Sequence record: NC_079184.1 | Length of the DNA stretch: 53,998 nucleotides | Source of the DNA: Escherichia phage vB_EcoM_DE15 | Reading direction: 5' to 3' (one strand) | Shown: positions 2,715 to 33,969 of the stretch, piece by piece | How positions within the stretch are numbered: position 1 is the first letter of the stretch | How the letters are laid out: every line of letters starts with the position of its first letter | Notes under the pieces: generated by a model | Told to the model about the DNA's origin: nothing | The model's database searches: none | What the model saw: only the letters and a program-made list of their open reading frames with translations | Position numbers and translations under genes: made by a program

Positions 2715-3670
2715 AAAGAATACGGAGAAATATTCCGCATGTCATGTTGAATCATTCTAGAAACATTCAGCATGTCAGCTTTGAGTTACAGCGTTGTAAT
2801 GATGTGGCAATCATTGAACTCCCTGGGAAGGCCACCTATAGTTCCAGCAACCATGACTTAGAGTAGGAATATCTATCCGAAACTTGGACTTCATTGTAGT
2901 TTGGTGTGCTTCATCGTGAGAAAGGTTGTGATAACTTTCGTAAGCAGGTGTTGAACTAACAACAGAACATCGTGTTAGCCATCTTGATTAAGTTACAAGA
3001 AAGTCAACAAATCAGCATGTCTATTAGTAACAATCTTGTTCCTTCTCCTATTATCAAGGCCCACCCACAAGCCGGGAGATAACTTTGACAAGACTGGAAC
3101 TTTTGGACATGCTTCTTTCTTTCTACAAGAATTCGAAAGAAGAGAAGAGTCGGAGCAAAGCCGCGAAACTAATCCCGTAGCCCGCCCCCGATTTTGAGCA
3201 ACAAATATTGTGACAATTGCGTCGCAGTATGGCATGTAAATATTGCTACAAATTGGCATGTTGGAATGTGGCAGAATTGTTAGAGGACTAATCACCTCGA
3301 AGATACAATCGTCTACCAATCTGGCATGTTAATTTTGTAACAGTATTTGTGCCAATTTCGCATGTAATAGTTGTATCAGTATTGACCCAATATTCTTGCA
3401 ACCCGCATGAATACTGGCTTCCAGCCAAGCGAAGGCTTTATCATCGCATGTAATATTGTGACAATATTGGGATAAAACCCTTTATTTAAATCATTTAGTT
3501 TATTAATTAAATGGTCGGTTTTCTGTACATAGGTATTCAACTGTTTGTGCCAAATACAAACAAGTTGGCTGCTTCTACAGAACTCCAGTGCTACAAATGT
3601 TCGTGCCAATCTGCTGCAATTTATCTCATTTGGCGGGGTAATATTGTATTAGGTTGGTACGTCATTATTT

Positions 3671-3692
3671 CGATTAGTTGCATGTGAATAAG
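3671..3692 (+). promoter_or_regulatory. Phage promoter-like motif variant GATTAGTTGCATGTGAATAAG
   Basis: Member of recurring motif family, one core substitution. Confidence 0.3.
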
Positions 3693-12042: not shown

Positions 12043-12274
12043 TTTAAATATTGCTGAACTTGAGGCTGGATTGATTGTTCACCACCAGCCTCGAAACACT
12101 TTCTATCGTATTCTTGGGCCTACAAAGATTAAAACTCACTGCGGAAGTTGGGTGGATGGGTTTGCTTACCAAGAAGTGAAGAAGTACGGGGACCATACTT
12201 TCTTAAGTATTGATTCCTCTACTATCTACACACGACCGAAAGAGCTATTTGACTCAGACTGGAAAACACTATAG
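12035..12274 (+). CDS. Hypothetical protein (79 aa)
   Basis: ORF. Confidence 0.4.
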   Translation: MRDLNIAELEAGLIVHHQPRNTFYRILGPTKIKTHCGSWVDGFAYQEVKKYGDHTFLSIDSSTIYTRPKELFDSDWKTL

Positions 12275-12343
12275 TTCCAGGCGGGTTTCTTCGAAGTGCC
12301 AAGCGGGTTTTGTACTCGCATTGGCCTTCGGCTTTAGTCTGAA

Positions 12344-12364
12344 ACATTAGTGGGATTTGATTCT
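12344..12364 (+). promoter_or_regulatory. Phage promoter-like motif (first of three in tandem)
   Basis: ACATTAGTGGGATTTGATTC. Confidence 0.4.
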
Positions 12365-12494
12365 GACCACTTAGGGAAGAAAGGCATTATACACTTATCG
12401 CCAAATGGGTGTCAAGCACTTTCTTCATTTATTTTAATTTATTCTTATTATTCTTTTTGTTTGGAATATTGGAATAATTCTGAAACATTAATTG

Positions 12495-12516
12495 GAATTG
12501 AATTAGTGTAATTCTG
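12495..12516 (+). promoter_or_regulatory. Phage promoter-like motif (second of three)
   Basis: ACATTAATTGGAATTGAATTAG, preceded by a 70-nt AT-rich tract. Confidence 0.4.
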
Positions 12517-12621
12517 TCTGTACTCTTTTCCACTAGCAATTGTAGAGGAAGTCCACTGCAATAAGCGCAGCCTCAAACAACCAAGTCTGGACAACTTGGG
12601 AAGAGAGTACAGCACAAAATC

Positions 12622-12642
12622 ACATTAGTTTGAATTGAAACA
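12622..12642 (+). promoter_or_regulatory. Phage promoter-like motif (third of three)
   Basis: ACATTAGTTTGAATTGAAAC. Confidence 0.4.
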
Positions 12643-12651
12643 ACATCAGAT

Positions 12652-12724
12652 AAGAGCTTTGTAACTAGGTAGTCCGTCTGGTACCAAGACGTGTGAGAAC
12701 GTTCGATTCGTTCTACAAAGCTCT
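12652..12724 (+). other. Structured element: perfect 12-bp stem (AAGAGCTTTGTA / TACAAAGCTCTT) closing two internal hairpins, one T-arm-like (GAACG-TTCGATT-CGTTC)
   Basis: Inverted repeats read directly; located just downstream of third tandem promoter. Confidence 0.35.
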
Positions 12725-13273
12725 TTTCGATGGAATGTTTCCATCATATACATTTATCTTTTAACATAGGCCAAAGGGCCGGAATACTTATCCACAGAAA
12801 GCTATTCACTTGTTATAGGCGATGTATTGGGATGAATTGGAACTAAATAAGCAAGCTGTTAGGGCTGAATAATTAGAGGGTAATGCCTCATGCTTATGTT
12901 AGTCATTCGAAAATAGGTTTGTGCCACAAGCTGCTGGTGCTCCGAGGAAGTCGGACAAACAGGGCTTAGAGTGGCATAATCCGCACAAAACCGCGCCACC
13001 AGCTATGCCAAAGCGGGTGGTTTGGGTGAATGTATTGGGAAGGGTTGCAAAGCCTCTGTGACACGCCTGAGCCGCAAGGCGACGACACTCATGTGATTAG
13101 CGTATCGCACCCTAACGGGAGTAACCCTTCGCCAATGCAGTTATCCAGAATTGACACAAACGGTAGGCAGTGGCCCGATTTTCGGCCTTCCTGCGCTACT
13201 CTGTGGCCTGTTTCCTGGGCCAAAAGATGAGAAGAGAAGTCACAAACACTGAATCGAAAATTGGAGAGTTCCT

Positions 13274-13588
13274 ATGATTCGCAAGCATTCTGCTAAAGTT
13301 TTGACGTTAAGAAGGGTAAGGGTCGGTCTTACAGGTAATGAAGAGGAAACAATACACTTCGTCCTGGTTGGAGGTCTTTGGTACTACAATGGTACTAATG
13401 CCTTTTCCGTGAGAATCTCAGAAAAAGATGGGTTCTGGAAGCACACTTTCGAAGAGATACTAGGCACCAGTGCCAAATACACCCTTGCAGAAATTAAGAA
13501 ATATTTCTATATAGGCCCAAACAAGTCCATGCAAATAGCAATCCGCAAATGGACAACAAACCAACCGATTTACGGAGTTCCATTTTGA
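13274..13588 (+). CDS. Hypothetical protein (104 aa)
   Basis: GGAGAG RBS, ATG start. Confidence 0.45.
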   Translation: MIRKHSAKVLTLRRVRVGLTGNEEETIHFVLVGGLWYYNGTNAFSVRISEKDGFWKHTFEEILGTSAKYTLAEIKKYFYIGPNKSMQIAIRKWTTNQPIYGVPF

Positions 13589-15014: not shown

Positions 15015-16104
15015 GTTGCCGATGGCAAACTTGAGAGACTAAGCTAAATCGATCTGGCATGCACTGGAAGATTTCCGGTGCTGCCTTGAACCCATTCTGA
15101 AAGGAAGAGTGGGCTTCAATGAGCATTCTTGTGATTAGAGTTGGGAGGTAGGCCGATGCCCAAGCTCATGGCCCAGACAAGAGTGTTCATTGAAGTTACT
15201 TCAATATGGATTGTCGCCAAGTTGTGGAAGGACGTGCACACAGATTTAACGAAGAAAAGTAACAGCCTGAGAACTGTGAAAATTTCCCGTTATGTCGTGG
15301 GGAAGTGCACCATAGCTTGGGTTCTTCACGTAGATATTACTCAGATATTTGCGGCTCGCTGAATGTGAGCATCCATATTGAAGTAGTTTTCTGAGTCTTA
15401 CGACGGGCCTAAACTGCCTGAAGTTATTGCGACTGTTTTATTCATTTAAAATAAATGCAAATGATTCTGAAATGCGAGTTGCGGCTTAATTAAATTTAAG
15501 TCCTCTCCGTGGTCTTCCAATCCCACGTAACCAAATTTGGCGCATTGTGGCTTCGAGATGTGATTAATAAATCGGAGCAATAATTAATTTGTATTCTGCG
15601 ATGCAATGCAGGCTTAAGTCCCTCAGTGCGCGTGGGGATGTGACAGAGTACAAACTTAATTATGCAGTTGGATATTTCTAGAGGACGGACGAGCACACTG
15701 GAATGTCTTCAATTGGTTTAGTGTGAGAAGCTATGCCAATATGAAACGTAACTCCTTGGGGAAGTGCTCCTCTGGATTTCCCTCCACACAGGAATCTCAA
15801 GCCTGTGGCAGCGACTTCGAAGCTGCACTGCGTAACCTAAATTCACCCTAAAGTGAGTTGCCCTGAGTATGGAAATAAACTGCTCATAACCGATGGTATC
15901 TACAAAGGTAGATTAAATCAGGTTGCCTGTTGGTACTTGGGTTCAACACCTGCTTGCACTCGCAAAGTAGTGCCTCGTACCTGAGATGAAGTGAGTCGGG
16001 ACCATCAATCCCACGTTATGTCAAAACACAGTAGGCGGCTCACGGATTCTACAAGCCTCGCAGTTCGGGAAAACCTGCGTTATCAAAACCCCCCTCTTTT
16101 ATTT

Positions 16105-16196
16105 GGACGAGTAGCTCAGAAGGTTTGCATTGTGCTCAGTCAGGTAGAGCAATCTGTTCGACAGATGTGTCGTTGGTTCGAATCCAACCTCGTCCA
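16105..16196 (+). tRNA. tRNA-like gene (anticodon loop GUUCGAC, anticodon UCG, Arg) carrying a 20-nt insertion in the D-loop; possibly pseudo-tRNA
   Basis: Acceptor GGACGAG/CTCGTCC, TA at 8-9, D-stem GCTC/GAGC, T-arm GTTGG-TTCGAAT-CCAAC, discriminator A; D-loop 29 nt with duplicated GCTCAG. Confidence 0.4.
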
Positions 16197-16228
16197 CCCA
16201 CTTTAATAATAGCAATACTGGAGTCCTT

Positions 16229-33394: not shown

Positions 33395-33969
33395 CGCCAC
33401 CTCCAGCTCCTGCGGTGTCTGCTGTAGCAGGGACTGTAACTGCGGACGCATCTGCATCTGATGCCACTGTAACTGTAGACAAACTGTTTACGTTTGAGAA
33501 CTCTACAGCAACAGATTACAACTTCGCCGTTACTCCTGCTGTAGCTGGTGTTTCTGTGGCGGCAAACGGCACTGTGACTGTACTAAGTGCAACGACTACA
33601 GCCACTTCTGCGACAATCAAGGCAACGAATAAAACAGAGCCTGGTGTAACTGCATCTAAAGTGATTACGATTAAGCCTAAACCTCCTGCACCTACGGTGT
33701 CTGCTGTAGCTGGAGTTGTAACGGCTGATGCGTCTTCTACTGATGCCACTGTAACTGTAGACAAACTGTTCAAGTTTGGTAACTCTGCAGCAACAGACTA
33801 CACCTACGCTATTACGCCTCCTGTGATTGGCGTTTCTGTGGCTGCAAACGGTACTGTAACCGTCTTGAATGAGACAACTACCGATACCTCTGCCACGGTT
33901 AAGGCAACAAACAAAACAACCTCCAGCGTGACTGCAACTAAAGAAATTGCTATTACGCCGAAGTCTTAA
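33382..33969 (+). CDS. -1 frameshift extension of the previous gene adding two tandem ~95-aa Ig-like repeats
   Basis: No start codon or RBS; -1 frame opens at 33376; repeats share SAVAG..TADAS..DATVTVDKLF..GVSVAANGTVTVL..KATNKT. Confidence 0.5.
   Translation, partial: PKAVTPPPAPAVSAVAGTVTADASASDATVTVDKLFTFENSTATDYNFAVTPAVAGVSVAANGTVTVLSATTTATSATIKATNKTEPGVTASKVITIKPKPPAPTVSAVAGVVTADASSTDATVTVDKLFKFGNSAATDYTYAITPPVIGVSVAANGTVTVLNETTTDTSATVKATNKTTSSVTATKEIAITPKS

Follow-up and report, generated by a model that had tools for sequence, protein, structure and literature searches.

We analysed a non-coding stretch in the genome of Escherichia phage vB_EcoM_DE15 (sequence record NC_079184.1; the 53,998 nucleotides (nt) of it that we studied, on one strand, are called the window here), a phiEcoM-GJ1-like coliphage of the genus Carltongylesvirus (Chaseviridae, Cleopatravirinae). 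A sequence-only reading of positions 12344 to 12790 had noticed tandem promoters, an AT-rich tract and stacked hairpins, and had proposed a candidate origin or non-coding RNA (ncRNA). This stretch is the front end of a conserved non-coding locus of about 1 kb, located where the early genes end and the next block of genes begins. We show that the RNA modules of the locus (the Y-shaped elements A and B, an invariant hairpin and the downstream domains D1 to D4) fold independently, are exchangeable and are under selection for base pairing. Chaseviridae are myoviruses of 52-56 kb with a T7-like single-subunit RNA polymerase (RNAP) (ICTV profile and records). All genes of the window lie on the + strand, and the phage encodes a T7-like RNAP, DNA polymerase, helicase/primase and single-stranded DNA-binding protein. 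The locus lies 3' of the gene for the anti-restriction protein ArdA and an open reading frame (ORF) of 79 amino acids (aa), with which the early genes end. On its 3' side come a block of small ORFs and then thymidylate synthase, helicase/primase and DNA polymerase.

In the window, the locus lacks a convincing protein-coding gene. The absence of an ORF up to 13274, which the sequence-only reading had claimed, agrees with our search: no ORF of at least 67 aa is found on either strand of 12275-13273, where the longest has 66 aa and none is convincing. A 53-aa ORF beginning with GTG (12350-12511), which runs across the promoter motifs P1 and P2 described below, is disrupted by 1-nt indels among close relatives, and the small ORFs annotated over the locus DNA differ between the records of the relatives. 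A Pfam search of the flanking ORFs, the cassette ORFs and the ORF inserted in phiEcoM-GJ1 (GJ1 below) gave no matches. The idea of a protein-coding gene was rejected because of these frame-breaking indels, because Pfam matches were missing and because the covariation pattern is that of RNA pairing.

The locus is widely conserved in the subfamily. By nucleotide comparison, the non-coding 999 nt at 12275-13273 match 49 phage records, among them phiEcoM-GJ1, SA91KD, Mangalitsa and the Yersinia PYps phages, and the best matches are Escherichia phage JL1 (98.7%) and ST32 (95.9%). One record labelled as a Staphylococcus hyicus phage ("Staphylococcus phage Pel53", PP952070) has the same genes and about 93% identity to the locus; its host label is likely wrong. 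The sequence-only reading would have abandoned its proposal had the region been absent from related phages. We found the locus in synteny in every Cleopatravirinae genus examined, with a non-coding gap of 0.7-1 kb at the same position, including in PP101 and PA_03; the gap is absent from pAh6-C (Nefertitivirinae). A blastn search of 5,426 E. coli genomes and of the PLSDB plasmids gave no match to the locus RNAs. A metagenome scan yielded 2 contigs, and viral scans returned mostly known isolates plus the sequences L027, L065 and L068. We discarded the 111 matches of a genome scan, since all lie in unrelated bacterial or archaeal contigs and look like chance.

Independently folding RNA modules

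Element B (12648-12728, + strand) is a Y-shaped RNA with a closing stem of 11-12 bp, a joining strand containing GG and two hairpins. As the sequence-only reading had described, a perfect 12-bp stem, in which AAGAGCTTTGTA (12652-12663) pairs with TACAAAGCTCTT (12714-12725), closes the hairpins CGTCT-GGTACCA-AGACG (12675-12691) and (A)GAACG-TTCGATT-CGTTC(T) (12696-12714). The minimum free energy of this fold is -27 kcal/mol (z = -2.7; 0/200 shuffles). In the alignment of relatives, 98.1% of the cells in its 24 pairs are paired, and 10 pairs show changes in both partners (shuffles: 3.5 +/- 1.2, 0/500; slid controls: 0-2). A covariance model of element B (R1) scores the window copy at 104 bits; it finds only copies of type 1, and misses both type 2 and the variant of Faunus. 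Type 2, found in PYps23T and MLP1, has an unrelated sequence, the same Y shape and a UUCRAUG loop.

Both hairpins of element B have recurrent features. The loop TTCGATT had been called T-loop-like and does have this motif, a 5-bp stem closed by G-C with the loop U-U-C-R-A-N-N: the window has GAACG-UUCGAUU-CGUUC, relatives have the loops UUCGACU, UUCGAAU and UUCAACU, and type 2 has ACAGG-UUCAAUG-CCUGU. The T-arm-like stem shows a compensatory change in one pair. The apex of the middle hairpin contains a perfect palindrome of 6-10 nt in 6/6 variants (GGUACC, CGGCCG, CGGCGCCG, GCGGCCGC, UGGUACCA and UGCGGCCGCA), which would be compatible with a loop-loop dimerisation of the element. Another branched RNA, with a closing stem of 19 bp (z = -5.9), lies elsewhere in the window, at 15114-15195 within the non-coding stretch 15040-15200, where two hairpins precede it. 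The covariance model of element B matches it weakly (15.1 bits, E = 0.34) and also matches the same place in SA91KD, whose 15.0-17.5-kb region is largely unannotated.

The place taken by element B behaves as a slot. It extends from the leader GAAACAACAUC (12637-12647, + strand), which is invariant across 17 sequences but for one base in PYps16N, to the invariant hairpin GAUGGAA-UGU-UUCCAUC (GATGGAAtgtTTCCATC, 12729-12745, + strand), which is identical in 17/18 sequences; the sole change, in phiA050, turns an A-U into a G-U pair and keeps the pairing. What fills this slot is element B of type 1 or type 2 in some phages; Faunus has another interior, phiA050 an A-like RNA closed by a long stem, and the metagenomic L065 only a 6-bp hairpin. 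The CAUC of the leader can pair with the GAUG at 12729 across any insert, and in phiA050 the result is a continuous stem of about 22 bp. A further hairpin, GGCCaaagGGCC, follows at 12769-12780; it and the invariant hairpin are the ones that the sequence-only reading had placed at 12771-12782 and about 12729-12746.

A second Y-shaped RNA, element A (12515-12614, + strand; z = -4.2 to -5.1), sits between the second and third promoters and was absent from the sequence-only description. It has a long closing stem and the hairpins CUGC...GCAG and CCAAGU-CUGGACA-ACUUGG. Compensatory changes are found by RNAalifold in 12/23 pairs among 6 sequences, and the closing stems of the window, TH25, TH26, phiA050 and SSEM1 share no sequence and are always complementary. 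These stems have 13-17 bp (about 22 bp in phiA050), to be compared with the 11-12 bp of element B and its 2-bp and CAUC/GAUG extensions. An invariant GUCCA could form a pseudoknot with the invariant loop UGGAC. Element A is an optional cassette, absent from GJ1 and 4HA13. The slot that it occupies after P2 is empty in GJ1, TH23, TH37, MLP1, PYps23T and 4HA13; it holds element A and a further promoter copy in the window, SA91KD, ST32, TH25 and TH26; and it holds one or two small ORFs and a further promoter copy in Mangalitsa, Ecp_YSF, PYps16N, PYps3T, TH29, Faunus and phiA050.

The largest module chain was not seen by the sequence-only reading: about 480 nt of seemingly empty DNA before 13274 contain a structured RNA supported by covariation. 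This multi-domain RNA of about 435 nt (12776-13209, + strand; z = -4.9) includes, all on the same strand, the domains D1 (12833-12909), D2 (12916-12982), D3 (13023-13147, a long helix with a swappable tip) and D4 (13162-13200), with a possible long-range closure of 12776-12783 with 13202-13209. In an RNAalifold analysis of 18 sequences from four genera, it has 105 pairs with 95.4% of the cells paired; both partners have changed in 51/105 pairs, where shuffles give 16.1 +/- 2.9 (0/500) and slid controls 12-21. D1, D3, D4 and a GUCACA tail are found again in PP101, SSEM1, PA_03 and L068, in an order that is partly different and with intervening promoters or ORFs. Hence, the downstream RNA is better described as a chain of modules than as one rigid fold. 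On its 3' side the chain reaches as far as the ribosome-binding site of ORF 13274-13588, which is carried by a purine-rich linker (GUCACAAAC...AUUGGAGAGUUCCU, 13210-13273, + strand) that is kept in all Carltongylesvirus sequences, in 4HA13 and in phiA050.

These RNAs resemble no catalogued family. We compared them with Rfam 15, covering group I introns, Y RNA-like RNAs, GOLLD, ROOL, RNase P and riboswitches. At the gathering threshold, the whole window gave only a tRNA at 16105-16196; at E <= 10, the region 12200-13350 gave nothing credible and six relatives gave nothing consistent. A resemblance to RNase P was considered and dropped, since GAGGAAGUC, which looked like its conserved region CR-I, proved to be a local hairpin whose stem covaries and whose loop is G(G/A)AAG.

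Host- and phage-type promoters

Allowing up to 3 mismatches, the window has 15 copies of the 17-mer CATTAGTTGGANNTGAA, and all are on the + strand. The expectation is 2.45 +/- 1.57 on both strands, and 15 copies were reached in 0/100 shuffles. Three of these copies belong to the locus: P1 (CATTAGTGGGATTTGAT, 12345-12361, 2 mismatches), P2 (12486-12502, 1 mismatch) and P3 (12623-12639, 1 mismatch). They are the three promoter-like motifs within 300 nt of the sequence-only reading, whose coordinates were accurate to about 2 nt. The homologues of P1 and P2 in phiEcoM-GJ1 are annotated as "putative phage promoter 4" and "putative phage promoter 5", and the SA91KD record also annotates both as promoters and leaves P3 without annotation (GenBank records EF460875 and OL960574; annotations attributed to Jamalludeen et al. 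2008). P1-like motifs stand at the same position in 4HA13, phiA050, PP101 and PA_03. P3 is present wherever a cassette, be it element A or small ORFs, follows P2, and absent where there is no cassette. Upstream of P1, a terminator-like hairpin (12291-12331, + strand; -23.8 kcal/mol, z = -3.95) closes the operon of ArdA and the 79-aa ORF, and the homologous site in SA91KD is annotated as a rho-independent terminator. Other promoter copies in the window likewise have hairpins 3' of them.

P2 is the most conserved promoter of the locus. The block TGGAATATTGGAATAAT-N5-AACATTAGTTGG, in which TGGAATATTGGAATAAT is a 17-mer and which includes P2, is identical in phages of E. coli, Erwinia and Aeromonas, and the ArdA proteins of the phages sharing it are only 30-36% identical to that of the window. 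The promoters were partly known; new here are the cassette logic, the constancy of P2 from genus to genus and the enrichment of the motif on one strand. The record of phage flopper (MN850594) starts at the equivalent of about 12496 in the window, cut inside P2. We rejected this break as a genome terminus, because the locus of 4HA13 lies 10.4 kb in and that genome has a defined 3.1-kb terminal repeat; the break is probably an assembly artefact at repeated promoter copies and not a physical end.

Facing these motifs is a perfect sigma-70 promoter, TTGACA-18-TATAAT (12415-12386, - strand), with 12/12 consensus positions and an 18-nt spacer, within the usual 16-18 nt. It is the only perfect sigma-70 consensus on either strand of the 54-kb window. 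The hexamers and a spacing of 17-18 nt are kept in the Carltongylesvirus group, 4HA13 (Sabourvirus), Faunus, Aeromonas phage phiA050, PP101 (Suwonvirus) and Proteus phage PA_03 (Myducvirus). The spacers of these six genus-level lineages (17-18 nt) are mutually unrelated in sequence, and all six lineages have an A/T-rich, UP-like stretch 5' of the -35 element. None of the records examined annotates this promoter. Its leftward transcript would start near 12379. The promoter points directly toward P1, face to face, and a footprint of the host RNAP reaching to about +20 (about 12359) would overlap P1, from which we infer an occlusion of P1. On the + strand, the P1 transcript could form a nested hairpin followed by a U-rich run (12376-12426; -18.8 kcal/mol, z = -2.5). 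This hairpin holds the sigma-70 promoter on the opposite strand, and its inner inverted repeat lies within the promoter spacer and recurs with different sequences in 4HA13 and phiA050. The hairpin of the window has G-U pairs that are possible only on the + strand.

A proposed leader behind a promoter switch and the competing readings

How should this locus be read? The ncRNA half of the original proposal stands, as structured RNA with strong compensatory covariation on the + strand in element A, element B and the downstream RNA; the origin half agrees with the order of P1 and the AT-rich tract and stays a candidate. Our best reading, to which we give an even chance, is a modular structured leader or ncRNA locus transcribed by the phage RNAP and placed behind a switch between host and phage promoters. 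Early in infection, the host RNAP bound to the sigma-70 promoter would block P1 and transcribe leftward, in opposition to the early operon. After the takeover by the phage RNAP, P1, P2 and P3 would fire; the host and phage promoters would be mutually exclusive and could act as a handover switch. The P2 and P3 transcripts would form a long structured leader, in which the closing stems may serve as processing or stabilising modules, comparable to the RNase III sites that accompany many T7 promoters. Processing could then release stable small Y-shaped RNAs and give the downstream mRNA a protected 5' end. The cassettes may be exchanged between phages by recombination at the duplicated promoter copies.

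Several observations weigh against this reading. In Pantoea phage SSEM1 and the metagenomic contig L068, both hexamers of the leftward promoter are kept only 8 nt apart. Such a spacing cannot serve sigma-70, which hints at another role for the hexamers. At these sites (2365-2390 in SSEM1; about 3650-3680 on the reverse strand of L068), the short distance between TATAAT and TTGAC(A/G) amounts to a 10-nt deletion, equal to one helical turn. Furthermore, the path of the leftward transcript has no obvious terminator or ORF, and the closing stems, with their 11-17 bp, are short substrates for RNase III, whose sites of the T7 R type comprise about two turns of double-stranded RNA, often with an internal loop. 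The B slot of one relative contains nothing more than a 6-bp hairpin, so what this slot essentially does cannot be cleavage. The promoters of Chaseviridae are described as not yet identified (ICTV profile). In the literature that we examined, we found no transcript data for any Chaseviridae phage, nor an ncRNA, origin or transcript map for the family; hence start sites, processing and RNA stability are all inferred.

The locus matters for several reasons. The leftward promoter, the repeat tract, the Y-shaped RNAs and the large RNA appear to be undescribed, being unannotated in the records examined and belonging to no Rfam family. Chaseviridae are under development for biocontrol, and the locus supplies a statistically supported promoter motif, the sole conserved host-type promoter firing against an otherwise one-directional gene layout, a concrete origin candidate and about 0.7 kb of covariation-supported RNA without an Rfam family. 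It is unusual for a lytic 54-kb phage to have nearly 2% of its genome as conserved folded RNA, and the cassette behaviour of small RNAs beside an anti-restriction gene would be of interest for phage-host conflict. Phages of the family are known for temperature-dependent growth (literature). A structured leader heads the next gene block, and a link to temperature control is conceivable and worth testing.

The alternative that survives best is a T7-type origin of replication. We regard it as a tentative possibility, worth keeping in mind but not the one we would expect. RNA from P1, together with upstream read-through, would prime rightward DNA synthesis in the AT-rich tract at 12420-12480; the flanking leftward sigma-70 promoter and rightward P2 would help to open the tract, and its GGAATA repeats would bind a loading or initiator factor. 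Such an origin is compatible with the downstream RNA modules as separate features, and it may be a rival or a complement of the leader reading. The tract indeed lies between the first two promoters, as had been claimed. It has a GC content of 15%, and 12420-12479 (GC 0.15) is the second most AT-rich 60-mer of the window. TTATTC (12439-12444 and 12448-12453) and GGAATA (12463-12468 and 12471-12476) occur twice each, arranged as inverted repeats, and 4HA13, Faunus and phiA050 have extra repeat copies in both orientations.

A number of these features suit an origin. The phage has the T7-like RNAP and replication proteins listed above, the very AT-rich 60-mer begins about 60 nt 3' of P1, and the hairpin of the P1 transcript is followed by a U-run that ends in the tract. 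The repeat arrays, being in both orientations and varying in number among genera, resemble iterons, and the conservation of the tract goes far beyond what AT-richness alone would require. However, T7-type origins do not need iterons, and the cumulative GC skew is monotonic, rising steadily through the locus without an origin signal. The block of AT-rich tract, GGAATA repeats and P2 is missing in SSEM1 and L068, which retain the RNA domains and other parts of the locus. An even higher AT content is reached at 252-311, near another promoter. A perfect DnaA box, TTATCCACA at 12788-12796, was considered and set aside: it is also perfect in 4HA13, but it is mutated in most close relatives and its frequency in the window is that of chance. 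T7 origins each contain a promoter of the T7 RNAP, the primary ones being phi1.1A and phi1.1B (PMC8373140). What the sequence alone provides of such an origin are promoter motifs of the phage's own RNAP and an AT-rich tract that is 3' of P1 but 5' of P2 and P3. The likeness to the T7 layout drawn by the sequence-only reading can be kept as regards P1 followed by the tract and the T7-like replication proteins. Yet the tract has simpler explanations: its proximal part is equally well explained as an UP-like element of the sigma-70 promoter, and repeated protein sites by P2 are another such explanation.

Other AT-rich stretches of the window also carry repeated motifs. The 60-mer at 252-311 is the most AT-rich of the window, and the AT-rich intergenic stretches at 56-400, 2654 and 3463-3512 have paired AATATTG(N4)AATATTGGGA motifs in both orientations, whose core, AATATTGG, resembles the GGAATATTGGAATAAT block of the locus. 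These motifs could be early promoters or operators, or boundaries of a terminal repeat of about 3 kb.

A bolder combination of these elements, which we think unlikely, is an array of horizontally exchangeable trans-acting Y-shaped ncRNAs, specific to Cleopatravirinae, one of which would present a tRNA-like T-loop elbow and a self-complementary kissing loop; the array would be gated by the face-to-face promoter switch on a T7-style origin. The RNAs would be made by the phage RNAP from its most conserved promoter and would act as decoys for tRNA- or RNA-directed defences, as regulators or as replication primers.

Somewhat more doubtful is the narrower proposal that elements A and B, and possibly D1 to D4, are free-standing accessory small RNAs, either tRNA-like decoys or sponges against defences that target RNA or tRNA, or regulators. 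Element B might then dimerise through its palindromic loop, and a decoy or sponge role would explain why swappable cassettes stand beside an anti-restriction gene. This proposal draws on the fact that each cassette has its own promoter copy and varies in presence between close relatives, and on the proximity of ArdA. Two sequence types that are unrelated to each other both have the T-loop UUCRA closed by G-C and a GG in a joining strand, and the apex palindromes of the middle hairpin are GC-rich in all 6/6 variants of element B. However, these palindromes may do no more than lengthen the stem below a 4-nt loop, the B slot can be reduced to a 6-bp hairpin, as in one relative, and no similar sequence in E. 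coli genomes or plasmids suggests a host RNA that might be mimicked.

The last two alternatives fare poorly. We find it very improbable that the large RNA, together with the endonuclease ORF of GJ1, is a group I intron or its remnant. This ORF encodes a 133-aa HNH-like endonuclease (PHROG 2340, E = 9e-10), and is peripheral in the structured RNA, and an ORF-less remnant of the insertion persists in 4HA13; both points count in favour. But no Rfam intron model matches the window or six relatives at E <= 10, there are no flanking exons or interrupted gene, and in PP101, SSEM1 and L068 the domains stand apart, in another order and with intervening promoters. The GJ1 ORF is annotated as "putative exonuclease SbcC" (2046-2447 of L002) and has a CxxC...HH...CxxHH motif without a Pfam match; in 4HA13 (about 2960-3230 of L003), the flanks of the insertion are kept without the endonuclease ORF. 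The least credible alternative is a tRNA gene, tRNA pseudogene or tmRNA-like gene at element B, for in spite of a canonical-looking T-arm (equivalent to G53-UUCGAUU-C61), the GG in the 5' joining strand and a 5-bp stem with a 7-nt loop at the anticodon-arm position, ARAGORN finds nothing at 12648-12728 with standard or lowered thresholds in four variants of element B (calls come only from its metazoan-mitochondrial mode and contradict each other), the Rfam models of tRNA (RF00005) and tmRNA remain unmatched even at E <= 10, and the acceptor-like stem has 11-12 bp instead of 7, without a D stem, a U33 or a conserved anticodon-like loop. With the tRNA and tmRNA modes of ARAGORN and Rfam all negative, such an identity is effectively refuted, and element B is neither a tRNA nor a tmRNA gene.

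The only tRNA of the window is found elsewhere, at 16104-16200, which ARAGORN calls a tRNA-Leu(CAG) of 97 nt and Rfam aligns with a 23-nt insertion in the D-loop region; its homologue has been called a tRNA-Arg of 95 bp "without an intron" (ST32 paper). Far from the locus, in the late-gene part, 33399-33962 consists of two tandem copies of a 282-nt unit with 77% identity.

Comparison with known systems

The leftward promoter recalls pO and the oop RNA of phage lambda, a short host-RNAP transcript antisense to the end of a convergent operon and located beside the origin. Both loci have a strong sigma-70 promoter directed against the neighbouring genes and into the 3' end of the upstream operon, and in both this promoter lies beside an AT-rich, repeat-bearing tract. 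The window differs in that its promoter faces a phage-RNAP promoter and is followed by no evident terminator or defined short RNA. We found no sequence relationship between the locus and lambda.

Another parallel in layout is the primary origin region of T7, with phi1.1A, phi1.1B, an AT-rich region that follows these promoters and the RNase III site R1.1; T7 pairs many promoters with RNase III sites. The details of this layout reportedly go back to Dunn & Studier 1983 and Saito et al. 1980. Each region has tandem promoters of a single-subunit RNAP, with an AT-rich tract after the first of them and an RNA structure with long stems immediately 3' of the promoters. In both cases the RNAP and early genes lie on one side and the following gene block on the other, and the phage has T7-like replication proteins. 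The window, which we know here from its sequence alone, departs from T7 in having its tract between P1 and P2 and not after both promoters, in the GGAATA/TTATTC repeats of this tract, and in the leftward sigma-70 promoter between P1 and the tract. Furthermore, its RNAs are three-way junctions that vary as cassettes and not simple bubble hairpins, and about 435 nt of further structured RNA follow.

Finally, element B can be set beside tRNA-like structures such as the tRNA-like domain of tmRNA and the bacterial Y RNA YrlA. It differs from them in its terminal helix of 11-12 bp and in having no D stem, anticodon loop signature or CCA. Yet it shares with them a G-C-closed stem of 5-6 bp with a UUCRANN loop, and a T-stem that stacks directly on the helix formed by the 5' and 3' ends, in an arrangement where the GG of the joining strand could dock on the T-loop.

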